Source: a virus
Lineage: Duplodnaviria > Heunggongvirae > Uroviricota > Caudoviricetes
Reading direction: 5' to 3' (one strand)
Length of the DNA stretch: 47,664 bases
IMG/VR virus record: IMGVR_UViG_2639762844_000003
The notes under the pieces were generated by a model. The model saw nothing but the letters and a program-made list of their open reading frames with translations, made no database searches and was not told where the DNA came from. Shown here piece after piece: positions 1,641 to 47,664 of the stretch (position 1 is the stretch's first letter; the number at the start of each line of letters is the position of its first letter). The position numbers and the translations under genes were made by a program.

Positions 1641-4112
1641 TTAAGAATCAGCCTGACTCGGGATCAGTTTTTGCCAGATAACTGAAACGTATTTTGCCTG
1701 GTAACGGGCGTCATCAAGTGCATTATGGCGCTCACCTTCGAATTGAATAGCCGTTCTGGCATCGAAGTCTATGGCTTTCCCCAGCTCAACGATTGTGCGT
1801 ACATCGCGATCGTTGTAGTAACGCCACGGGCAGGGGATCCCCTGCCGTTCGTATGAACGGCGCAAAATCGTGTTGTCGAAGTTGGCTCCATTTCCCCAGA
1901 CCTGAACAAAAAATTCACCGGAGTTTTCGTCGATAAATTCCCGCAATTGTAACAGTGCATCATCTAACGGGATTTCATCGGTCATAATGGCAGATTGCGC
2001 TTCGCGTGATTGCTTAAGCCACCATTTAATGGTGTCCCGATCAATGACTCCGCCAGCAGTTTCCAGATCGATAGTCTTACTAAATTCCGGTCCCATATCT
2101 CCGGTTTGCGGATCGAAAAATATTGCACCTATTGAGATGATCGGGGCATCAGGATTTTTTCCCATGGTTTCAAGGTCGATCATTAGATGGTCACACGTCC
2201 TGCTGGTGGATGTGATTTCGTGATGACCGTTCACCTTAATTGAGTGATCTGCCGTCTCGCCAGTTTCATTATCGCTATCGTGATGCTGATTGCCGCCAGT
2301 GTTCTCCTTGTGTGGATGTTCAGCGCCTTCCATTTTCTCCGGATCATCTTCCTGAACTTCAACCTGATACTCTTCATCGAATGTTTCCTGGTATGTTGCG
2401 TCGCCCATTACCGCGCCACAATCAGGGCAGTTGCCGCCGCCGGTCTGACCGCAGGCGGTGCAGACTTTTTCCACTTTCTGTTGCGCCACTGATTCAGGCT
2501 GTTTCGTTTCTGGCTCGTTTTGTAACGCATTTGGGCTGTTTTGTTCCGCTTTTTGGTAGTTCCGTTCCGATTCATGCTGGTTCTGGTTCACAGAATCGCG
2601 GGTCTGGATCCCCTTAACCCATTTCGGATCATTCGGGTCACTAATCCCTTCAACAAATTCACCACGTGATGCAGCAAGCAACTTATCGGCGTCAGGCTGG
2701 ATGATATTGGCTGCCTGCATAATTTTGTTTACTTCGTCAGCGGTAACTTTTATCGGCTCTGGTTGTTCTGAATCTTCAGCGGTATCTACATTTTGCGGTA
2801 AGCCCGTGTATGTGCCATTTTTTCGGGCAAAATATTCTTCTTTTGTGATTTCAGTGGCGCCAGCAGCCAGTGCCTTATCCAGACCAGAAAGTTTGTTTGC
2901 GCGACCGTATTTTTCTCCGTCCTTATCTGCGAAGAGGAAATAGAACGGCCCCTCACGCTCTACAGATGGTTCAGCTTCCGGCGCGGTTTCATTTTTTGGG
3001 ATATCAGATACCTCAGTTTCCACTGCATCAGTTTGTGTTTCTGATGACTGGAGAACATCAACAGTGCCCAGGTCTGTTTCTTCATTCTCAAACACGCCCT
3101 TTGTCGTCAGGTATTCGCAGATATATTTGTTCAGTGCTACGGGATCTTTGTGAATGTCGATCGGACGTTCACGGACAAGGCCAAAAATAGTTTGGCGGTC
3201 GTAGCGAAGGGCATCAGGCTGTTTGCGCATTGATGCCGAGATACGCTTCCAGTCTTCGCGGTCGTTATCGATAACTTCATTTTTTGCCCAGCGATGGATG
3301 CTGCCGTCAATGTTTCCGGCATCCACATCACCAGGCCAGAGAGCGTAGGCCAGTTCGTCATCCAGTGTTTTCCATGTCTGCTTGTATTCGCGATGAATGG
3401 CAGCAATGACCGGGCTGATTTTTCCTGTTGAATTTTCAGTGTACTGTTGATTGGCTCTGGCGCGGGCGAGATCAACAACAGACGTGTATTTTCCGGTTTC
3501 CTTGCGTTCACCTTCGCGACGTTTTTTCCAGATGCGCATCTCTGCCTGAATTTCGGGCCATTTGGCACCAGGAATACATTTATGCTTAACCCACCCAATG
3601 GCGTGCAACTTAAGCTCCGGATACATGGCGTTAACTTCTGGCATTTTCATCAACGCTTCAACGATATGTCCGTCGAATGTTGCCATGTCTTCCTGCAACA
3701 ATTCCTGTGCGCTAATAACCATATCAACGGTGATGTTTTCACATGTGTCGAACTTAACCATGACAGCGTTCTGTACTTCAGGGGCCAGCTTGTCAAAAGT
3801 GACGTTCATCGGATCGGATTCAGTCTCAACCGGGACAAAAGAAGCAGACTCCTCATCCCAGCGGTTTTCCTGCATATATTCAGCATCCCATGAATCGAGG
3901 GCAGGGCGGGGTATGCCAGGTTTATCCTCGCAGACAATAAATTTATAAGCGCAGTCCTGAGCAGCCGGATAATGTTCCAGGAATTGCCAGTGAAATTTTG
4001 CTCGAGCACGGCGTTCGTCGCTAGCTTCAATGGCTGTGGCTACAGCCACAGCGCCTTCTTCCCTTGTTGCCAGTTCGTCAGGAATAGCGGCGCAAATAAA
4101 GACTTTACTCAT
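1641..4112 (-). CDS. Phage exonuclease, 823 aa, with C-terminal DnaQ-like DEDDh 3'-5' exonuclease domain and a central Cys4 zinc ribbon
   Basis: C-terminus carries Exo I (MIDLETMG), Exo II (WGNGANFDNTIL) and Exo III (HNALDDARYQAKY) motifs; CTACGQTGGGNCPDCG zinc ribbon mid-protein; occupies the recombination-gene position next to xis-int. Confidence 0.8.
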   Translation of the reverse strand: MSKVFICAAIPDELATREEGAVAVATAIEASDERRARAKFHWQFLEHYPAAQDCAYKFIVCEDKPGIPRPALDSWDAEYMQENRWDEESASFVPVETESDPMNVTFDKLAPEVQNAVMVKFDTCENITVDMVISAQELLQEDMATFDGHIVEALMKMPEVNAMYPELKLHAIGWVKHKCIPGAKWPEIQAEMRIWKKRREGERKETGKYTSVVDLARARANQQYTENSTGKISPVIAAIHREYKQTWKTLDDELAYALWPGDVDAGNIDGSIHRWAKNEVIDNDREDWKRISASMRKQPDALRYDRQTIFGLVRERPIDIHKDPVALNKYICEYLTTKGVFENEETDLGTVDVLQSSETQTDAVETEVSDIPKNETAPEAEPSVEREGPFYFLFADKDGEKYGRANKLSGLDKALAAGATEITKEEYFARKNGTYTGLPQNVDTAEDSEQPEPIKVTADEVNKIMQAANIIQPDADKLLAASRGEFVEGISDPNDPKWVKGIQTRDSVNQNQHESERNYQKAEQNSPNALQNEPETKQPESVAQQKVEKVCTACGQTGGGNCPDCGAVMGDATYQETFDEEYQVEVQEDDPEKMEGAEHPHKENTGGNQHHDSDNETGETADHSIKVNGHHEITSTSRTCDHLMIDLETMGKNPDAPIISIGAIFFDPQTGDMGPEFSKTIDLETAGGVIDRDTIKWWLKQSREAQSAIMTDEIPLDDALLQLREFIDENSGEFFVQVWGNGANFDNTILRRSYERQGIPCPWRYYNDRDVRTIVELGKAIDFDARTAIQFEGERHNALDDARYQAKYVSVIWQKLIPSQADS

Positions 4113-4205
4113 TTTGTTTTAACCTCATGACAGATTTAAGGATGAACAAATCCCTGCCATTGCTGGCATATAAGAATGAAACCGGATATTTATTACGGAA
4201 CTGTT

Positions 4206-4397
4206 TTAAAGACCTGCCGGGATTTCGATATTATACTGGTGAATAACTTTATCGACCGGGTAACAGTTACCGGGAATTTTCTGTTCGGTTGCTGCAGTCA
4301 TACACTCCTGCATTGTCCTGTGAACACTGACTGCAATATCAACTGGCTCTCCGGAAACAAGAAAAACTGTCAGAACAAGCGCAAATGCTGAATTCAT
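4206..4397 (-). CDS. ydfD: YdfD-like small protein (63 aa) with N-terminal hydrophobic segment
   Basis: Starts at the internal ATG (MNSAFALVLTVFLVSG...); size and position downstream of dicB match Qin ydfD. The ORF-track start further upstream is less likely. Confidence 0.5.
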   Translation of the reverse strand: MNSAFALVLTVFLVSGEPVDIAVSVHRTMQECMTAATEQKIPGNCYPVDKVIHQYNIEIPAGL

Positions 4398-4582
4398 TGT
4401 GCACATCCTTTTGGCATCAGACGTAAACGAGCCAGCATTGAAACAATGCATATTTTATTTAATAGCTCCCGTTCTTGTTTTCTCTTGTTAATGGCATCTT
4501 CAGTAAATACAGGGTTACTGATAGTGACACCAATTTCAAAACAACCTTCAGACGTATTAACGTTTGGTAATAACGTTTTCAT
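4394..4582 (-). CDS. dicB: DicB-like cell-division inhibitor (62 aa)
   Basis: Internal ATG with GAGGA Shine-Dalgarno 7 nt upstream; 62-aa product MKTLLPNVNTSEGCFEIGV...; follows the dicF-like RNA as in the Qin dic operon. Confidence 0.6.
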   Translation of the reverse strand: MKTLLPNVNTSEGCFEIGVTISNPVFTEDAINKRKQERELLNKICIVSMLARLRLMPKGCAQ

Positions 4583-4755
4583 TATCGCGTCCTCAACAAT
4601 GAATTTTGTGATGCAGTGCCTGGTGCCTCCAGGTGACGTTAACCAGTTAACAATTAACGCCGGATACAGAGAATCCACCCATAACACTGTTTTTGGTTTT
4701 AACTGTTCCGCGTGCGCTTAGCCGCATTCACCGCATCACAAAATTCACTTTAAAA

Positions 4756-4808
4756 ACGGCGGCAGAGCAGTCACGGAGTAAAACTGATACCGCCAAACGT
4801 CACCAGAA
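4756..4808 (-). ncRNA. dicF: DicF-like small RNA (antisense regulator of ftsZ)
   Basis: Minus strand reads TTTCTGGTGACGTTTGGCGGTATCAGTTTTACTCCGTGACTGCTCTGCCGCC followed by a T-run, matching the recalled DicF sequence; lies between the ydfA-like genes and dicB. Confidence 0.55.
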
Positions 4809-5068
4809 AATTGATAACAGAGGGCGTTGCAGCGGGGTTGTCACTTAAGCGTATGGTCAACCTGACAACTCGGTGTCCTCAACGGGGAAGGAATAACCCC
4901 GCCATACTTACCGCCGCGCCATTTCGCGGGTTGCCACAACCGGAAGCGCACGGTCGAATTAAATTTAACGACACCGTACAGTGAGACGAACTTCGCCGTG
5001 CGCTTTCGTGTTGTGTGCCTGCTTTTAACCACGTCAGGCGAGGTGGTATCCTTAAAATCACCACAGTT

Positions 5069-5644
5069 TTAAGGATTCATTAAGCAATGTCGCAACCACC
5101 AATAAATCCGCTTAAGAACATGAAAATTGATTACTGGTATAAAGCGCTTACAGTTGTTGGCGCTGCGTTGTTTGTCTTTAATGGAACGTCTTTTTTTGAC
5201 AGATATCCCGTTGTTCCATTGGGTTTTTTGTCCTCCGGCATCTTTTTTATTGGTTTGGGGGAGTGGATTAATCACCCTCTCAAAGTGAGATTTATTGGTC
5301 CTGGAGTTTGGACTCGTGGATATAATCGTTCTTCGTGCGCACTCGGTATCATCTTCGACATACTTGGTTGTTTCCTGATTGTTACAGGAGTCGTCAAGTT
5401 CTTCTGATGTAAAACCGCAAATGGGGCACGTAACGGGAATTTTGAAAAGCGTTTCTCCGGGTTCCAGAACAAAATTTTCTGCGGTCTGATTTTGCTTCTC
5501 ATATTTGTGCTCCGCGTCATTGTGAGAGCACATTCTTATTCTGAGTGCCTGTTTAAACTCACTGAAGCTGAGAGCTTCTTCGCCTTCGGCAAGGCCTTCG
5601 AAGTATTCTTCGTAAGCCTTTTCCATGATTGTGTCGAAATCCAT
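5069..5644 (-). CDS. Hypothetical protein in the ydfB/ydfC position; 3' half doubtful
   Basis: ATG at 5644 is coupled to the stop of the upstream ydfA-like gene (TGATATG) with a GGTGAG Shine-Dalgarno. The acidic N-terminal ~85 aa look protein-like; the K/R/N-rich C-terminal half overlaps a plus-strand membrane ORF and may be read-through. Confidence 0.35.
   Translation of the reverse strand: MDFDTIMEKAYEEYFEGLAEGEEALSFSEFKQALRIRMCSHNDAEHKYEKQNQTAENFVLEPGETLFKIPVTCPICGFTSEELDDSCNNQETTKYVEDDTECARRTIISTSPNSRTNKSHFERVINPLPQTNKKDAGGQKTQWNNGISVKKRRSIKDKQRSANNCKRFIPVINFHVLKRIYWWLRHCLMNP
5087..5407 (+). CDS. Small multi-pass membrane protein, hypothetical
   Basis: 106-aa ORF with about three hydrophobic helices; lies antisense to the 3' half of the 5069..5644 ORF, so only one of the two is likely real there. 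Confidence 0.35.
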   Translation: MSQPPINPLKNMKIDYWYKALTVVGAALFVFNGTSFFDRYPVVPLGFLSSGIFFIGLGEWINHPLKVRFIGPGVWTRGYNRSSCALGIIFDILGCFLIVTGVVKFF

Positions 5645-5645
5645 A

Positions 5646-5803
5646 TCACTCACCTGAGTTTCTTTCCAGCCAGCGACGGGCACCATTTTCGGTTTTAAAC
5701 GTTTTGCTTTTGGTATACGTCATCGCGGTGAACGTACCGTCCTGGTTGGGGAACACGCCACATACCAGAGATTCGCTGTTGCCAAGATCGATAGTATCCA
5801 TGC
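5646..5803 (-). CDS. ydfA: YdfA-like small protein (52 aa)
   Basis: ATG with GAGG Shine-Dalgarno 6 nt upstream; 52-aa product MDTIDLGNSESLVCGVFPNQDGTF...; first gene of the leftward operon below the repressor. Confidence 0.55.
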
Positions 5804-5877
5804 TGACCTCATTTCCCCTTAACGCCGGGGTAGCGGAACTGTTTGCTGAGAACACCGTGCGGTGTCTTGATGGAAGT

Positions 5878-5930
5878 AATTTAGTTTTCTCATTATTTTT
5901 CGTCAAGGTTTTTTGATGAGAAAACTCAAG
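5878..5930 (-). promoter_or_regulatory. Leftward PL-like promoter with flanking operator motifs
   Basis: On the minus strand: -35 TTGACG (5901-5906), 17-nt spacer, -10 TAAATT (5878-5883). The motif ATGAGAAAACT occurs at 5916-5926 and, inverted, at 5883-5893, bracketing the -35. Confidence 0.45.
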
Positions 5931-5993
5931 TATTGGCGCAAGATAAAGCCAATACATTGAAATGTAAGGCTTTAAAATTTTGTGAAGGGATGA

Positions 5994-6401
5994 TTATTGA
6001 TGCTTGTTGCGTTTGCGAGCCTCTAATAGCTCGGTGAACAGGCGATTAAAATTCTCAACGCGGGCGCGGAGTTCGCTGAGTTGTGCTTGTTGCTCTGATT
6101 TAGGAAGTGCGCGATACAAACGCAGCATCTCTAACTCATCTTCCGATAAGTCTAAGGCACTATCGAGTGAAACAGGGGGAGCTGGTGTTTTGTCCTCGTC
6201 GCCAAACAGTATCCAGGTTGGTGAACATTGCAATACCTCGGCGAGGCGATGCAAATTTTGCCCGCGCGGGGCTGTATGGTCACTTTCCCATAATGAAATT
6301 GATGAGCCAGATACGCCAGCAGCTTTGCTTAAACCGTTTTGACTTAAGCCTACCTGCTTACGTCTTTCTCTAATGCGTTGACCTAAAGTTTTCTCGTTCA
6401 T
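5994..6401 (-). CDS. dicA: DicA-like HTH (XRE family) prophage repressor
   Basis: MNEKTLGQRIRERRKQVGLSQNGLSKAAGVS... helix-turn-helix and the ..LQCSPTWILFGDEDK.. motif recalled from DicA; diverges from a cro-like gene. An alternative upstream ATG at 6452 would give a leaderless start. Confidence 0.8.
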   Translation of the reverse strand: MNEKTLGQRIRERRKQVGLSQNGLSKAAGVSGSSISLWESDHTAPRGQNLHRLAEVLQCSPTWILFGDEDKTPAPPVSLDSALDLSEDELEMLRLYRALPKSEQQAQLSELRARVENFNRLFTELLEARKRNKHQ

Positions 6402-6423
6402 ATTTAGATATCTTAATAACCCT

Positions 6424-6466
6424 TGACTTGAGATTCCTTGAGTGATTAGCATTGAGAAAACTCAAT
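6424..6466 (+). promoter_or_regulatory. Rightward PR-like promoter with palindromic operator
   Basis: -35 TTGACT (6424-6429), 18-nt spacer, -10 TAGCAT (6448-6453), overlapped by the inverted repeat ATTGAG-AAAA-CTCAAT (6451-6466); GGAGG Shine-Dalgarno and cro-like ATG follow. Confidence 0.5.
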
Positions 6467-6478
6467 ATTGGAGGTGCG

Positions 6479-6706
6479 ATGTTTAAATCAGACGTAATTA
6501 ATTTTTACGGTACGAAAGCCAAAGTAGCGAAAGCTGCTGGCGTTGACCCATCTGCTGTTTCTCAATGGCAAGAGCTGGTTCCTGAAGGTCGCGCGATGCG
6601 TCTACAGGAGGCATCTGGCGGCGAGCTTCTGTATGATCCCAAGGTTTATGACGAATATCGTAAGACGAAGCGGGCGGGGCGGTTGAACAATGAAAATCAC
6701 TCCTGA
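6479..6706 (+). CDS. dicC: Cro/DicC-like small regulator
   Basis: 75-aa product from ATG at 6479, with GGAGG four nt upstream; divergent from the repressor. The ORF-track start at 6452 is a TTG inside the operator. Confidence 0.7.
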   Translation: MFKSDVINFYGTKAKVAKAAGVDPSAVSQWQELVPEGRAMRLQEASGGELLYDPKVYDEYRKTKRAGRLNNENHS

Positions 6707-10427: not shown

Positions 10428-10892
10428 TAGAAGGTTAGCTTGTGTCGGACTTTGCGTATTAAATGACTAGTGGTTGAGCCCCATTTCCACAGAAAAAATC
10501 AGAGAAACTATACCCAATAGTTGTATTGAATCACTGACGAGACAGCCTCATATTCATCAGGACTGGTGTACGTCCAATACAGGAGGTTGTGGTGCTGGTT
10601 CTCAAATGTGCGCTGGCTATTACGGCTGTAATGGCGATTTATTGTCTTGCTATTGTTCTTATGGATCGCCTTTCTGACTGATTTCACATTGGCGAGGTAA
10701 CGGTAGTTAAGTAGAATGGCTGCGGGTGCTTGAGGCTATCTGCCTCGGGCATGAACACCAACGGCAGATAGAGAAAAGCCCCAGTTAACATTACGCGTCC
10801 TGCAAGACGCTTAACATTAATCTGAGGCCAATTTCATGCTAGACACATGTAGGTTAGCCTCTTACGTGCCGAAAGGCAAGGAGAAGCAGGCT

Positions 10893-11048
10893 ATGAAGCA
10901 GCAAAAGGCGATGTTAATCGCCCTGATCGTCATCTGTTTAACCGTCATAGTGACGGCACTGGTAACGAGGAAAGACCTCTGCGAGGTACGAATCCGAACC
11001 GGGCAGACGGAGGTCGCTGTCTTCACAGCTTACGAACCTGAGGAGTAA
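10893..11048 (+). CDS. hok: Hok/Gef-family type I toxin (membrane-depolarising peptide)
   Basis: 51-aa product MKQQKAMLIALIVICLTVIVTALVTRKDLCEVRIRTGQTEVAVFTAYEPEE, near-identical in pattern to Gef/HokC; in-frame upstream ATG at 10836 is mok-like. Confidence 0.8.
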   Translation: MKQQKAMLIALIVICLTVIVTALVTRKDLCEVRIRTGQTEVAVFTAYEPEE

Positions 11049-11117
11049 GAGACCCGGCGAGGGAGAAATCCCTCGCCACCTCTGATGTGGCAGGCATCCT
11101 CAACGCACCCGCACTTA

Positions 11118-11148
11118 ACCCGCTTCGGCGGGTTTTTGTTTTTATTTT
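11118..11148 (+). terminator. Rho-independent terminator after hok
   Basis: CCCGC-TTCG-GCGGG hairpin followed by a long T-run. Confidence 0.7.
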
Positions 11149-11264
11149 CAACGCGTTTGAAGTTCTGGACGGTGCCGGAATAGAATCAAAAATACTTAAG
11201 TAGCGCGCAGGGATAAGAGGGATGGTCCCTTAAAGGGGAGAGCTAATTATCCGGAAGGATTCTG

Positions 11265-11516
11265 ATGATGAACATCGAAGAACTGCGTAAAATTTTTTGT
11301 GAAGATGGCCTCTATGCGGTGTGCGTTGAAAATGGAAATCTTGTTAGTCATTACCGCATTATGTGTTTGCGAAAGAATGGGGCTGCGTTAATTAATTTTG
11401 TGGATGGTCGAGTGACAGACGGATTTATCTTGCGCGAAGGTGAGTTTGTCACTTCATTACAGGCACTGAAAGAGATCGGAATAAAAGCAGGCTTTTCAGC
11501 TTTTGCAGAAGAATAA
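11265..11516 (+). CDS. rem: Rem-like small protein (83 aa)
   Basis: 83-aa ORF next to hok, matching the size and position of Qin rem. Confidence 0.5.
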   Translation: MMNIEELRKIFCEDGLYAVCVENGNLVSHYRIMCLRKNGAALINFVDGRVTDGFILREGEFVTSLQALKEIGIKAGFSAFAEE

Positions 11517-11582
11517 ACTCATCTACAATCTTGCGCGGGGCTGAACTCCCGCTGAGTAACACCGTGCCACCGGAGAAAACCG

Positions 11583-11861
11583 ATGGCACGCAACGTAAAA
11601 TATTACAATTCTGATAATTCGCCCGTTCTTGCCTGCACGCACGAGCGGTATTCTCACGCATTCAAGTCTGAATGGTTCCAACACCCTCCATGCACTGAAG
11701 AGCAGGCTGAATGGATAATTCAGTGTTACCGCAGGCGCGGATACGAGGTTAAGAAAGCCCTTAGTCTCGACTACCGTCACTGGATAATCTCAGTCAGATT
11801 GCCTTACTCCGAACGCCCACCACGTGCGTCCCGCACTTTCCAGCAACGGATCTGGAGGTAA
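11583..11861 (+). CDS. Hypothetical protein
   Basis: 92-aa ORF, ATG with GGAG upstream; its stop overlaps the Shine-Dalgarno of the next gene. Confidence 0.5.
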   Translation: MARNVKYYNSDNSPVLACTHERYSHAFKSEWFQHPPCTEEQAEWIIQCYRRRGYEVKKALSLDYRHWIISVRLPYSERPPRASRTFQQRIWR

Positions 11862-11862
11862 C

Positions 11863-12912
11863 GTGCGGGTATTACTTAGACCTGTTCTGGTGCCTGAGCT
11901 TGGGCTGGTGGTCCTTAAGCCGGGCCGTGAATCCATACAGATATTTCATAATCCTCGAGTGCTGGTGGAACCGGAACCAAAAAGCATGCGTAATCTGCCA
12001 TCCGGAGTCGTTCCTGCCGTTGGCCAGCCGCTGGCGGAAGACAAAACATTGCTGCCGTTTTTTAGTAACGCACGGGTAATTCGTGCTGCTGGTGGTGCTG
12101 GTGCATTGTCTGACTGGCTGTTGCGCCATATTAAATCCTGCCAGTGGCCACACGGCGATTATCATCACAGCGAAACCGTTATTCACCGTTATGGTACCGG
12201 CGCAATGGTGTTGTGCTGGCACTGCGACAACCAGCTGCGTGACCAGACATCCGAATCACTCGAGCAACTTGCTCATCAAAATCTGTCAGCATGGATGATT
12301 GACGTCATCGGTCACGCAATAAGCGGTACGCAGGAGCGTGAATTATCTCTGGCTGAATTATCCTGGTGGGCGGTCCGCAATCAGGTGGCGGACGCGCTAC
12401 CGGAAGCGGTATTACGTCGTTCGCTGGGGTTGCGTGCGGAAAAAATCCGCTCAATGTACCGTGAAAGCGACATCGTACCGGGAGAGCAGACCGCCACCAG
12501 CATACTGAAACAGCGCACAAAAAATCTTGCGCCGCTGCCTCACGCCCACCAGCAACAGAACCCACCACAGGAAAAGACGGTGGTCAGCATTGCCGTTGAT
12601 CCTGAGTCTCCGGAATCTTTCATGAAACGACCTAAACGTCGCCGCTGGGTTAACGAGAAATACACACGCTGGGTGAAGACACAGCCGTGTGCGTGTTGTG
12701 GTAAGCCAGCCGACGATCCCCATCACCTGATTGGTCATGGTCAGGGCGGAATGGGGACAAAATCTCACGATATTTTCACGCTACCGCTGTGTCGGGAGCA
12801 TCACAACGAGCTTCATGCGGATCCTCTGGCGTTCGAAGAAAAGCATGGTTCTCAGGTTGATTTAATTTTTCGTTTTCTTGATCACGCCTTTGCAACTGGC
12901 GTGCTTGGGTAA
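11863..12912 (+). CDS. ydfU: DUF968 (YdfU-like) protein with C-terminal HNH-like Cys/His motif
   Basis: GGAGG then GTG at 11863 gives a 349-aa product; C-terminal CACCGKPADDPHHL...CREHHNELH motif; nin-region position. Confidence 0.75.
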   Translation: MRVLLRPVLVPELGLVVLKPGRESIQIFHNPRVLVEPEPKSMRNLPSGVVPAVGQPLAEDKTLLPFFSNARVIRAAGGAGALSDWLLRHIKSCQWPHGDYHHSETVIHRYGTGAMVLCWHCDNQLRDQTSESLEQLAHQNLSAWMIDVIGHAISGTQERELSLAELSWWAVRNQVADALPEAVLRRSLGLRAEKIRSMYRESDIVPGEQTATSILKQRTKNLAPLPHAHQQQNPPQEKTVVSIAVDPESPESFMKRPKRRRWVNEKYTRWVKTQPCACCGKPADDPHHLIGHGQGGMGTKSHDIFTLPLCREHHNELHADPLAFEEKHGSQVDLIFRFLDHAFATGVLG

Positions 12913-14260: not shown

Positions 14261-14336
14261 GGTCCTTTAGCTCAGTGGTGAGAGCGAGCGACTCATAATC
14301 GCCAGGTCGCTGGTTCAAATCCAGCAAGGGCCACCA
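14261..14336 (+). tRNA. tRNA with CAU anticodon (Met, or Ile2 ileZ-like)
   Basis: Cloverleaf read by hand: 7-bp acceptor stem, GCTCAGTGG D-arm, CAU anticodon loop, GGTTCAAATCC T-arm, 3' ACCA. Confidence 0.85.
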
Positions 14337-14441
14337 TCACAAACCGCCATGAGCTTATCAGGAAGAGCAGACGACACGATAACAGGGTTGTTGGTGCGGG
14401 GGGGGGGCGGGTCCCCGATGGCGGTCCATTATCGGTATTCA

Positions 14442-14518
14442 GCGTTGTTAGCTCAGCCGGACAGAGCAATTGCCTTCTAAGCAATCGGTCACTGGTTCGA
14501 ATCCAGTACAGCGCGCCA
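14442..14518 (+). tRNA. tRNA-Arg (UCU anticodon)
   Basis: Acceptor GCGTTGT/ACAGCGC, D-arm GCTCAGCCGGACAGAGC, anticodon stem ATTGC/GCAAT with loop CTTCTAA, T-arm GGTTCGAATCC, 3' GCCA. Confidence 0.85.
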
Positions 14519-14982: not shown

Positions 14983-15456
14983 ATACATATCTGGATTATC
15001 ACCTGTTACGGTAAAAAGTGATTGCTTACTGTTTTTGTGAATGGCATTGCAGCAGCCGGATAATGTCAGTGCTGGCTGACGGTGTGCTGGTGGCGGGTGT
15101 GGTGGTTGTTGCTTTCCCGTTGCTGAAAAAGAAAACGCCAGACTGTTAGCCGGGTATCAGTTAGCGGGAGAAATTTTTAAATACTTCACAATTCAGGCGG
15201 TTGACTGTTCTCTGGTTTGCGGGGAGTTTGTTAAAAGAAACTGGCATGGTGAATCCCCCTGTGCGGAGGGGCAATCAGCGAGTAGGTATATGGGATAATC
15301 GCGGATTCAGGTGCTGGTACTGAATTCACCGGGAGGCACCCGGCACCATGCACTTCAATAGATTCTCTCCACATTATGGATATTCTTTCAGAATATCCCA
15401 CGCAGACTTTGTGTAAATGTTAACAAATGTGCGTTTTATTTGATCTGATTCGCTGT

Positions 15457-44066: not shown

Positions 44067-44647
44067 TGGCATTCAGAATGAGTGAACAACCACGGACCAT
44101 AAAAATTTATAATCTGCTGGTCGGAACTAATGAATTTATTGGTGAAGGTGACGCATATATTCCGCCTCATACAGGTCTGCCAGCAAACAGTACCGATATT
44201 GCACCACCAGATATTCCTGCTGGCTTTGTGGCTGTTTTCAACAGTGATGAGGCATCGTGGCATCTCGTTGAAGACCATCGGGGTAAAACGGTTTATGACG
44301 TGGCTTCCGGCGACGCGTTATTTATTTCTGAACTCGGCTCATTACCGGAAAATGTCACCTGGTTATCCCCGGAAGGGGAGTTTCAGAAGTGGAACGGCAC
44401 AGCCTGGGTGAAAGATGCAGAAGCAGAAAAACTATTCCGGATCCGGGAGGCGGAAGAAACAAAAAACAGCCTGATGCAGGCAGCGAATGAGCATATTGCG
44501 CCACTTCAGGATGCTGTAGATCTGGAAATCGCAACGGAGGAAGAAAACTCGTTGCTGGAAGCCTGGAAAAAGTATCGGGTGTTGCTGAACCGTGTTAATA
44601 CAACAACTGCACCGGATATTGAATGGCCAGTAGCACCTATAGGGTAA
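44066..44647 (+). CDS. tfa: Tail fibre assembly protein (Tfa-like)
   Basis: 193-aa ORF whose start overlaps the stf stop; lambda order. Confidence 0.85.
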
Positions 44648-46090: not shown

Positions 46091-46380
46091 AATCGTTTCG
46101 TGATATGCCGCAGAAACGTTGTATGCAATAACGTTCTGCGGTTGGCTGATGCACTTTCGAGAGTGTATTGAATAATTTCAAGCCGTTATTGTTTTTACGC
46201 GTAACACCATGAAAAGACTGCTTATCTGTTGGGGTGTTTTTTGGGGCATATATGGGACAGAAATAGGCCACAGATAGATAGTAAGATCGAACTCAGGATG
46301 CTTTTGAAAAAATGTAACTATCTGAAAAAACCTAGAAAGCGCCAAGGAAACCACAGAATGAGAAAAAACATCTGTGAATT

Positions 46381-47664
46381 ATGGATTTCCAGTTATATTC
46401 GCTCGGCGCAGCGTTAGTGTTTCATGAAATATTTTTTCCTGAATCATCAACGGCAATGGCGTTAATTTTGGCAATGGGAACCTACGGTGCAGGTTATGTG
46501 GCGCGTATTGTCGGAGCATTTATTTTCGGCAAAATGGGCGACAGAATAGGGCGTAAAAAAGTGCTCTTTATTACCATCACCATGATGGGGATCTGTACCA
46601 CCTTAATTGGTGTGTTACCGACCTATGCACAGATTGGTGTTTTTGCCCCCATCTTGCTGGTGACGCTGCGTATTATTCAGGGGTTGGGTGCAGGTGCGGA
46701 AATTTCCGGTGCCGGTACGATACTGGCGGAATATGCACCAAAAGGTAAGCGCGGAATTATCTCCTCATTTGTAGCTATGGGAACTAACTGCGGAACCTTG
46801 AGCGCAACGGCAATCTGGGCCTTTATGTTCTTCATTCTCAGTAAAGAGGAACTGCTGGCGTGGGGATGGCGTATACCGTTCCTGGCGAGCGTTGTCGTGA
46901 TGGTCTTTGCTATCTGGTTACGTATGAATCTGAAAGAAAGCCCGGTCTTTGAGAAGGTTAATGACAGCAACCAACCCACAGCAAAACCTGCACCTGCTGG
47001 TAGCATGTTCCAGAGCAAATCCTTCTGGCTGGCAACAGGGCTGCGTTTTGGTCAGGCGGGTAACTCCGGGTTAATTCAGACTTTCCTTGCAGGCTATTTA
47101 GTGCAGACGTTATTGTTTAACAAAGCAATTCCAACAGATGCATTGATGATTAGTTCGATTCTCGGCTTTATGACCATTCCGTTCCTTGGTTGGTTATCCG
47201 ATAAAATTGGTCGCCGGATCCCGTATATTATTATGAATACCTCCGCGATTGTGCTGGCATGGCCAATGCTTTCTATCATTGTAGATAAAAGCTATGCCCC
47301 GAGCACCATTATGGTTGCACTGATTGTGATTCATAACTGTGCGGTGCTGGGATTATTTGCTCTGGAAAACATTACCATGGCAGAAATGTTCGGCTGTAAA
47401 AACCGCTTTACCCGGATGGCTATTTCTAAAGAAATTGGTGGTCTTATCGCTTCCGGTTTTGGTCCTATCCTGGCGGGTATTTTCTGCACCATGACGGAAT
47501 CCTGGTATCCGATCGCCATTATGATCATGGCATATTCAGTGATTGGTTTAATCTCTGCGCTGAAAATGCCAGAGGTGAAAGACCGTGATTTAAGTGCGCT
47601 GGAAGACGCTGCGGAAGATCAACCGCGTGTTGTAAGAGCTGCGCAACCTTCCAGAAGTCTGTAA
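46381..47664 (+). CDS. ydfJ: MFS-type transporter, YdfJ-like, 3' portion (chromosomal gene at the prophage junction)
   Basis: 427-aa polytopic membrane ORF at backbone GC content; matches the recalled size and position of ydfJ, the Qin-interrupted transporter gene. Confidence 0.7.
   Translation: MDFQLYSLGAALVFHEIFFPESSTAMALILAMGTYGAGYVARIVGAFIFGKMGDRIGRKKVLFITITMMGICTTLIGVLPTYAQIGVFAPILLVTLRIIQGLGAGAEISGAGTILAEYAPKGKRGIISSFVAMGTNCGTLSATAIWAFMFFILSKEELLAWGWRIPFLASVVVMVFAIWLRMNLKESPVFEKVNDSNQPTAKPAPAGSMFQSKSFWLATGLRFGQAGNSGLIQTFLAGYLVQTLLFNKAIPTDALMISSILGFMTIPFLGWLSDKIGRRIPYIIMNTSAIVLAWPMLSIIVDKSYAPSTIMVALIVIHNCAVLGLFALENITMAEMFGCKNRFTRMAISKEIGGLIASGFGPILAGIFCTMTESWYPIAIMIMAYSVIGLISALKMPEVKDRDLSALEDAAEDQPRVVRAAQPSRSL

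Follow-up and report, generated by a model that had tools for sequence, protein, structure and literature searches.

The locus raises two questions: whether the leftward gene cluster beside its repressor is a complete dic division-inhibition module on an intact phage, as an earlier note made from the letters had proposed, and whether it holds anything new. Within the window (the whole stretch of 47,664 nucleotides that was analysed), positions 4206–5803 turned out to be the known, well-studied dicF/dicB/ydfD cell-division-blocking operon, which is ordinary and already described. At a probability of roughly 0.93, they make up the promoter-proximal part of an early-left operon of the PL type, in an intact lambdoid prophage of the Qin/mEp460 type that is integrated between ydfJ and rspB. 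The dicBF operon runs leftward of a DicA-family repressor, and DicC and Rem are also encoded in the window.

The protein-coding parts were identified by comparison with Escherichia coli K-12 and by Pfam scores far exceeding the cut-offs. The 62-aa division inhibitor DicB (4394–4582, minus strand) is identical to its K-12 counterpart at 62 of 62 residues and scores 136.8 bits against PF05358 (cut-off 27), a family that its length also fits; judging from this identity, it would inhibit division here in the same MinC-dependent manner. The 63-aa lysis protein YdfD (4206–4397, minus strand) matches K-12 at 61 of 63 residues, the differences being V6A and D55Y, scores 90 bits against DUF1482 (cut-off 25) and is labelled 'lysis protein YdfD' by RefSeq in a 100% identical genome. 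Both alignments are well clear of the 40% identity below which the earlier note would have withdrawn its assignments. As in K-12, ydfD and dicB overlap by 4 nt (ATGA), the arrangement expected for translational coupling. The 51-aa YdfA (5646–5801, minus strand) shares 49 residues with the K-12 protein and scores 96.2 bits against DUF1391. Downstream in the same operon lies a gene for a full-length 823-aa exonuclease (1641–4112, minus strand; Pfam Rv2179c-like), the intact counterpart of the K-12 ydfE pseudogene, and by blastn positions 3346–5026 are 98% identical to the K-12 stretch from ydfE' to dicF. These part identities can be read from the sequence itself, as can the retained processing duplex, the terminator and the layout of promoter and operators.

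A 53-nt DicF segment followed by a T-run had also been recognized, and the match is real, but the coordinates then given (4756–4808) were one off: dicF extends from 4809 to 4757 on the minus strand. A search with the Rfam DicF covariance model (RF00039), which the earlier note had suggested as a check, matched 4808 to 4757 on that strand at 72.5 bits (gathering score 48; E = 3.6e-14), covering model positions 1–52 of 52. In the aligned 53-nt RNA, 52 positions are identical to K-12 dicF, the lone difference being a C to G change at the last, unpaired position, and TTTTT follows directly 3'. The single-stranded 5' region, the two-part stem-loop and the 3' terminator with its U-run are all present, every pair being standard in the Rfam alignment, and the gene sits between ydfA/ydfB' and dicB with an RNase III-type duplex upstream. 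This long imperfect duplex, found in a minus-strand fold at 4935–5015 (arms 5015–4992 and 4958–4935), is likely the RNase III substrate that gives rise to the 190-nt DicF precursor, with a cleavage position that we infer for this prophage; in K-12, RNase III as well as RNase E processes DicF (PMC10448788). The precursor region (4946–4757) is identical to K-12 at 188 of 190 positions and the duplex is kept. Between ydfA and dicF, the minus strand showed no intrinsic-terminator-like site. The dicF–dicB spacer (4550–4759, minus strand) resembles the prophage sRNA family STnc100 (RF02076) at a sub-threshold 34.5 bits (gathering score 47; E = 3e-5), and the K-12 spacer gives the same match at 34.4 bits.

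The module is complete in a narrower sense than had been claimed: dicF, dicB and ydfD are intact, but ydfC, a member of the K-12 operon, is missing, with no tblastn match anywhere in the window, and only 34 codons are left of ydfB, joined to foreign sequence. Whereas K-12 has ydfC and a full-length ydfB, a 517-bp cassette (5027–5543) that is not in K-12, as delimited by blastn against Qin, here stands in for the 3' end of ydfB and the whole of ydfC. The acidic ORF mentioned in the earlier note is thus present (start 5644, minus strand), but not as a free-standing gene; it consists of YdfB residues 1–34 fused in frame to an ORF with a CPxCGF motif (5069–5644), which passes antisense through the whole of a 106-aa gene and whose native start is likely Met38, at 5533. 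The cassette is found in 805 of 5426 complete E. coli genomes (~15%), in 785 of them at 99% identity or more. Of 80 IMG/VR loci that carry it, 72 show ydfA, ydfB', dicF and dicB, and none has ydfC. A scan of viral contigs with the family alignment returned only E. coli copies that were 98–100% identical, unusable for divergence tests.

The regulatory region has the layout of K-12 with different specificity. As had been noted, a DicA-like repressor (135 aa; 5994–6401, minus strand) lies above the leftward operon; it scores 239.4 bits against the NCBIfam DicA model NF007257 (cut-off 101). It is 57% identical to K-12 DicA, and the candidate operators (TTGAG-N4-CTCAA) differ from the K-12 ones (TGTTAG-N6-CTAACA); it is a different immunity allele of the same DicA family. 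A promoter scan combined with repeat and pattern searches located a PL-like dicBp candidate (5878–5929, minus strand; -35 TTGACG, -10 TAAATT) flanked by two operator-like palindromes (5880–5893 and 5916–5929), and a PR-like candidate (6423–6465, plus strand) with a perfect operator palindrome, TTGAGAAAACTCAA, at 6452–6465. In the pattern search, operator palindromes were confined to the two intergenic regions either side of the repressor gene. K-12 has this layout of a promoter with two flanking operators too, with other operator sequences, and the dicBp candidate would be the putative promoter of the operon. The Cro-like dicC (75 aa; 6479–6706, plus strand) scores 165 bits against NCBIfam DicC (cut-off 130), matches Pfam P22_Cro and is 70% identical to its K-12 counterpart. 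The rem gene (11265–11516, plus strand) is annotated in a 100% identical genome, and its product is 96% identical to K-12 Rem, an antirepressor that relieves DicA repression (PMC10448788). Given the 57% identity of the repressor to DicA and its other operators, Rem regulation and the inducing signals may differ here from those in K-12.

Whole-window alignment to Qin placed both prophages at the same chromosomal site, with the same gene order and orientation of the dicBF operon (ydfABC-dicF-dicB-ydfDE in K-12), and rem and hokD/sok are shared by the two. Qin, however, carries IS2 in intQ/ydfE and has lost most of its genes, whereas the lambdoid prophage in the window is intact, resembles mEp460 and occupies the Qin site (ydfJ/rspB). 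Its structural and lysogeny genes form a complete set, with integrase, the exonuclease, Q, terminase, portal, tape measure, J and side tail fibre, and the window aligns at 62–78% coverage and 96–97% identity with the functional phage mEp460_ev081, its best overall match, so the description as an apparently complete prophage holds. That this prophage is nonetheless defective like Qin, its module left behind as a remnant with no working phage around it, seems very improbable: attL is absent from the window and many dicBF-bearing prophages of E. coli O157 are defective (PMC5069750), but genes broken or lost in K-12, including integrase, exonuclease, replication genes, Q, terminase, portal and tail genes, are full length here, and long stretches are 96–99% identical to plaque-isolated phages.

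The observation was correct but not new, since a 2023 paper (PMC10448788) had already named mEp460_ev081 as a functional phage that carries dicB, dicF, dicAC and rem. The functional lambdoid phages mEp460_ev081, HannyBb and Tritos all share dicF, dicB, ydfD and a DicA/DicC-type immunity region with the window, and the GenBank record of Tritos annotates DicF, dicB and ydfD, which means that the value of the locus as a fresh substrate for studying the module in its native phage context had been overstated. The isolated phage HannyBb is 99.5% identical over 4100–6500, cassette included, whereas at the cassette's place mEp460_ev081 and Tritos have ydfC or other genes, and Tritos has a different repressor. 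The 2.4-kb region also occurs at 100% identity in many RefSeq E. coli genomes.

How the operon would work is deduced from experiments in K-12 (PMC10448788, PMC5069750, PMC6832061, PMC8835842). In the lysogen, the DicA-family repressor would occupy the operators flanking the dicBp-like promoter and keep the operon off until repression is lifted by the Rem antirepressor, by the DicA/DicC switch or by prophage induction. A single leftward transcript would then start with ydfA and the ORF fused to ydfB', continue over the antisense of the 106-aa gene to dicF, dicB and ydfD, and go on into the exonuclease gene, xis and int. RNase III would cleave this RNA at the long duplex that lies upstream of dicF, leaving RNase E to trim the product to the 53-nt DicF, which would end at its own terminator hairpin. 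Together with Hfq, DicF would pair with the ftsZ, manX, xylR and pykA mRNAs, targets that are host genes outside the window; Hfq dependence and pairing with ftsZ and manX are to be expected from an RNA identical to that of K-12 except at the last, unpaired position. DicB would bind MinC, bring it to the septum and block Z-ring assembly, and would also inhibit ManYZ, while YdfD would inhibit IspG and cause lysis.

The same parts might instead serve mainly in lysogenic conversion and defence rather than in blocking host division during the lytic cycle. Low or sporadic dicBF expression in lysogens would then let DicB–MinC inhibit ManYZ and exclude incoming lambda-like phages, with DicF retuning sugar metabolism. 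Transient dicBF induction does protect K-12 against lambda through ManYZ (PMC6832061), ~1% of K-12 cells spontaneously derepress dicBp and DicF accumulates in stationary phase (PMC10448788), and, in sequence, DicB and DicF are here practically the same as in K-12. However, the operon occupies the position of lambda kil and Rac kilR, with exo, xis and int downstream in an early-left operon that is kept repressed, which ties the bulk of dicBF expression to induction, and we consider a primarily defensive role unlikely. The defensive and lytic-cycle roles are not mutually exclusive.

The cassette carries on its plus strand a gene for a 106-aa membrane protein (5087–5407), antisense to the operon, that RefSeq leaves without annotation. 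The earlier note had overlooked this conserved opposite-strand gene. The family comprises 60 homologues, the most distant at 34% identity, in which the DYWYKA and GLGEWxNHP motifs are invariant, and the structure model (pLDDT 82.8) consists of three helices and a beta hairpin. Neither this ORF nor the minus-strand ORF had any match in Pfam, NCBIfam or PADLOC, and the only PHROGs match, phrog_35040 for the minus-strand ORF, is a family made up of near-identical copies. PADLOC also matched no model to DicB, YdfD or YdfA. When the structure model was searched against the PDB with Foldseek, no hit had an E-value below 0.6. The gene adjoins the repressor gene in six other prophage loci. Across 27 non-prophage loci it has no conserved partner gene, and there is therefore no two-gene system to support a function. 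A simple promoter scan gave no 9-of-12 site upstream of it; an extended -10-like block was seen in the four-lineage alignment only. As a convergent gene between ydfB' and dicF, it could leave less read-through to reach dicF, whether through antisense pairing or through interference with transcription.

The layout parallels that of Rac (racR-ydaG-ydaF-sieB-kilS-kilR) and lambda (N-sieB-...-kil), in which a repressor and PL are followed by small promoter-proximal genes, YdaF of Rac being a DUF1391 protein like YdfA. In both, an opposite-strand membrane-protein gene precedes an FtsZ inhibitor, with a small RNA gene between them in Rac that is unannotated in the lambda stretch; KilR and KilS of Rac are unrelated to DicB and DicF. 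The 106-aa gene thus holds the position and orientation of sieB, inside the early-left operon near the repressor, but the analogy is positional only: as a candidate SieB the protein was rejected, with no Pfam match and hhalign probabilities of 0.1–0.2% against Rac and lambda SieB.

Past residue 34 of YdfB, the minus-strand ORF departs from K-12 homology and then runs opposite the 106-aa gene. In every prophage lineage examined (GC 0.40–0.46), this frame has zero stops over 107 codons, whereas the antisense frame of non-prophage homologues with GC below 0.50 contains 1–17 stops (5–10 at GC 0.39–0.44), and stops abound in the antisense frames of sieB from Rac and lambda. The chance of no stops is ~0.04–0.07 per lineage, and in all lineages the ORF ends 5–12 codons beyond the start of the plus-strand gene. 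The CPxCGF motif, which lies outside the overlap, varies almost only at synonymous third positions. The stop-free leftward frame in all examined prophage lineages, together with the conserved CPxCGF motif, suggests that the two form an antisense overlapping gene pair. A dual-coding test on third-position divergence went in the expected direction (~0.55 versus 0.65 in controls), a weak and confounded difference.

A rival explanation is that only the 106-aa gene is real and the minus ORF a non-functional read-through of the ydfB remnant, to which we would give somewhat less than an even chance. The RefSeq (PGAP) label of ydfB pseudogene fits it, as do frameshifts in some database copies (P0077, P0078, P0080, P0083) and the restriction of minus-ORF homologues to enterobacteria. 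Opposite a membrane-protein gene, the codon-complement frame also has a tendency to stay open, and in GC-rich homologues the antisense is open by chance. Set against this are the absence of stops in lineages of low GC, its small per-lineage probability, the similar end of the ORF in all lineages and the synonymous variation of the motif.

The alternative that we tentatively put forward, and hold at a little short of even odds in all its parts together, is that the cassette is a dual-coding unit in which a younger leftward CPxCGF ORF was overprinted on the entire antisense of an ancestral plus-strand membrane-protein gene. On this dual-coding account, lambdoid prophages of enterobacteria took up a stand-alone three-helix gene in their sieB slot; as this gene has a conserved extended -10-like block of its own upstream, its expression in the lysogen, with a role in exclusion or immunity, would be probable. 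Selection would keep the leftward ORF stop-free, either because its protein could act in early lytic development or because unbroken translation could protect the early-left transcript against Rho and let it extend to dicF, dicB, exo, xis and int. A parallel exists in Pseudomonas phage Fc02, where, beside the immunity region, a lytic-operon gene and one on the strand of the repressor overlap in antisense, and superinfection exclusion is conferred by genes of both strands (PMC9936078). Fc02 is an unrelated Mu-like phage in which sequence similarity is not expected, and any function of the cassette products would be putative.

The dic module as found adds little, its spread over many E. coli prophages having been published and functional carrier phages having been sequenced and cited. 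The prophage could be a convenient intact lysogen in which to ask what use the phage itself makes of DicF and DicB, although mEp460_ev081 and HannyBb already offer that. The one unusual detail is a small segment of the operon that seems to code for proteins on both DNA strands, and this possible antisense overlapping pair is the sole part that deserves further attention. The cassette, a common allele, may change the amount of transcription that reaches dicF and dicB, and it could matter as a case, argued from comparative genomics, for two genes that overlap in antisense within the immunity region of a phage.

The dicBF locus is carried by many prophages across many strains of E. coli, with several copies present in some cases (PMC5069750), and dicB, dicF, dicAC and rem are all found in the functional temperate phage mEp460_ev081 (2023 regulation paper, PMC10448788). 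The intact dicF-dicB-ydfD set that an earlier note had described below a DicA-like repressor is thus already known, being annotated or cited in intact phages, and both the observation and its interpretation hold. An Rfam scan of the whole window matched the DicF model over its full length on the minus strand, at 4808-4757, with 72.5 bits (gathering score 48), and alignment to E. coli K-12 placed the 53-nt RNA at 4809-4757, with 52/53 positions identical; the sole difference is the last, unpaired base, after which a TTTTT run follows. On the same strand, DicB (4394-4582) is identical to the K-12 protein at 62/62 residues, YdfD (4206-4397) at 61/63 and YdfA (5646-5801) at 49/51, and the Pfam models DicB, DUF1482 and DUF1391 were each exceeded by a wide margin. 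Because a DicF match was found and DicB and YdfD proved near-identical to K-12, at well over 40% identity, the assignment stands, with the coordinates originally proposed correct to within one to two bases.

In K-12, dicBp is repressed by DicA and relieved by the antirepressor Rem, with spontaneous flipping via the DicA/DicC switch, and cleavage of the polycistronic transcript by RNase III yields a 190-nt species, cleavage by RNase E the 53-nt DicF (PMC10448788). DicF targets ftsZ, manX, xylR and pykA (PMC5069750), DicB affects both the Z ring and ManYZ by way of MinC (PMC6832061), and YdfD causes cell lysis through IspG inhibition (PMC8835842). Transferred from these K-12 experiments through sequence identity, the same mechanism would apply to the module in the window. 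Its cis elements are also kept: the region of the 190-nt precursor matches K-12 at 188/190 positions, the predicted 5' terminus of this species (4946) falls within a 24-bp imperfect duplex (5015-4992 with 4958-4935), and no terminator-like sites were found on the minus strand from ydfA to dicF. No N-like antiterminator for early-left transcription past the DicF terminator was evident. Between the PL-like promoter and ydfA, the leader (5802-5877, minus strand) holds two hairpins, ACACCGCACGGTGT and CCCCGGCGTTAAGGGG, and is conserved in K-12; judged from translated upstream sequences only, its 3' part is also conserved in the related prophage loci L006 and L134, before a different first gene. 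The dicF-dicB spacer (4550-4759, minus strand) is similar to STnc100 (RF02076), a prophage sRNA family, at a sub-threshold score (34.5 bits; gathering score 47; E 3e-5), sharing an outer helix and the hairpin CACCnGGAGGCACCnGGCAC. The K-12 spacer does so equally strongly, the resemblance was also noted at L003 (4433-4642), and a 2026 preprint on the STnc100 and PasD sRNAs does not mention DicF. A full STnc100 copy lies upstream of the lysis genes (15215-15405, 114 bits).

The repressor to the right of the module (5994-6401) belongs to the DicA family (NCBIfam, 239 bits; cut-off 101), with DicC (165 bits; cut-off 130) encoded divergently. Two palindrome copies, candidate operators, flank a promoter-like site on the minus strand (5906-5878; -35 TTGACG, -10 TAAATT), and the perfect form, TTGAGAAAACTCAA, is located at the PR-like promoter; these three sites are exactly the best three palindrome matches in the 47.6 kb. 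K-12 has the same layout, but its operators read TGTTAG-N6-CTAACA. With different operators and a repressor sharing only 57% identity with K-12 DicA, the window carries a different immunity allele of the K-12 system. Despite the diverged repressor, Rem (11265-11516) is still 96% identical to K-12 Rem; either the conserved C-terminal half of DicA is what Rem recognises, or the two pair without allele specificity.

Whole-window alignment to K-12 identifies the prophage as the apparent intact counterpart of cryptic Qin, at the same chromosomal site. The aligned segments comprise intQ (1-1161), ydfE' through dicF (3346-5026), ydfA with the 5' part of ydfB (5544-5875), hokD, rem and ydfU (10879-12912) and the host gene ydfJ (46108-47664). 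Kept in the window but lost from K-12 are the integrase, Q, terminase, portal, tape measure, J and side tail fibre, and an 823-aa exonuclease is the intact form of K-12 ydfE. Copies of a 2.4-kb region that are 100% identical occur in many RefSeq E. coli chromosomes, where the prophage adjoins rspB and ydfD, dicB, ydfB (pseudogene), ydfA and DicC are labelled, with hokD and rem further on. The nearest phage records are mEp460_ev081, HannyBb, PhiR42_1 and Tritos; HannyBb, which was obtained as a phage isolate, matches 4100-6500 at 99.5% identity, and the Tritos record already has DicF, dicB and ydfD annotated. Elsewhere in the prophage we noted a sok antitoxin with hokD (10724-10898, 115 bits), tRNA-Met (CAT; 14261-14336) and tRNA-Arg (TCT; 14442-14518) downstream of Q, a run of ~10 G between these tRNA genes (14398-14409) that may be slippage-prone, and an IS009 RNA feature within the tail-fibre assembly region (44409-44607, 212 bits).

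Homology to K-12 is interrupted between 5026 and 5544, where 517 bp take the place of a 396-bp stretch that in K-12 comprises the ydfB end and the whole of ydfC. The YdfB match is confined to residues 1-34 and YdfC had no match anywhere in the window; the "acidic ORF" of the earlier note does exist (5069-5644, minus strand), but as YdfB 1-34 fused in frame to cassette sequence, with ydfC absent. Of 5426 complete E. coli genomes, 805 have the cassette, in almost every case at ≥99% identity, and 72 of the 80 cassette-bearing IMG/VR contigs have the arrangement ydfA-ydfB'-dicF-dicB (ydfC in 0/80). In two related E. coli prophages, toxin-antitoxin pairs sit between the repressor gene and the corresponding leftward CPxCGF ORF, namely HigB with an HTH protein in L134 (2139-2803) and PaaA2/ParE in L135 (2252-2731), which identifies the repressor-adjacent stretch as an accessory-cargo hotspot.

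The cassette carries a plus-strand ORF of 106 aa (5087-5407), convergent with the operon, that is unannotated in RefSeq and is a real gene. Its 60 database relatives, of ~100-110 aa and down to 34% identity, come from Yersinia, Herminiimonas, Reinekea, many metagenomes, and MAGs and genomes across several phyla, with DYWYKA and GLGEWxNHP motifs invariant. The structure model (pLDDT 82.8, confident) has three helices and a beta hairpin, and a three-helix membrane protein is predicted. No family match was obtained in Pfam, PHROG, NCBIfam or PADLOC, no solved fold matched the model, and no conserved neighbour was found outside prophages. In the enterobacterial prophage loci examined, the gene always lies directly left of the repressor gene and convergent with it, while repressors and early genes differ. 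Its position and orientation match sieB in the Rac prophage and phage lambda: in Rac, the order racR, ydaG, ydaF (DUF1391), sieB (+), kilS sRNA, kilR parallels DicA, ydfA (DUF1391), the 106-aa gene (+), dicF sRNA, dicB. Comparison with SieB led us to reject homology; from position, an exclusion or immunity role may be suggested. Four lineages with proteins sharing just 51-84% identity have kept a 45-nt block upstream of the gene (5011-5056) nearly invariant; the block includes the extended -10-like motif GTGGTATCCT and shares part of its length with the 5' arm of the RNase III duplex preceding dicF.

The leftward ORF occupies the exact codon-complement frame of the 106-aa gene. Across 107 codons this frame has 0 stops in the window, L006 (84% protein identity), L134 and L135 (90%), L007-L009 (58%) and the Yersinia loci L010-L011 (51%); no prophage lineage examined had a stop, and all of them have a GC of 0.40-0.46. 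Non-prophage homologues with GC <0.50 have 1-17 antisense stops (5-10 at GC 0.39-0.44), and only GC-rich ones have an open antisense frame; under the codon usage of the window's phage, a stop-free frame would arise by chance with a probability of 0.04-0.07 per lineage. We put at a little under one half the probability that selection holds the leftward frame open, whether for its protein product or to protect against Rho polarity. For translation speak the end of the ORF, 5-12 codons past the plus gene's start in every lineage, and a conserved IPxxCP(I/V)CGF motif encoded just ahead of the overlap, whose codons differ among lineages almost only at synonymous third positions; in L006 and L134, moreover, the early-left operon opens with this ORF, preceded by the leader found before ydfA. 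For the ORF in the window, Met38 (5533) is the probable native start. Against translation, prophage pairs show only a slight reduction in the plus gene's third-position divergence relative to controls, some database copies of the ORF are frameshifted, and neither Rac nor lambda sieB has an open antisense frame, so that an open one is not general to the sieB slot. The plus gene and the leftward CPxCGF ORF are a possible antisense overlapping gene pair, for which the antisense-overlapping exclusion genes beside the repressor of Pseudomonas phage Fc02 offer a precedent (PMC9936078).
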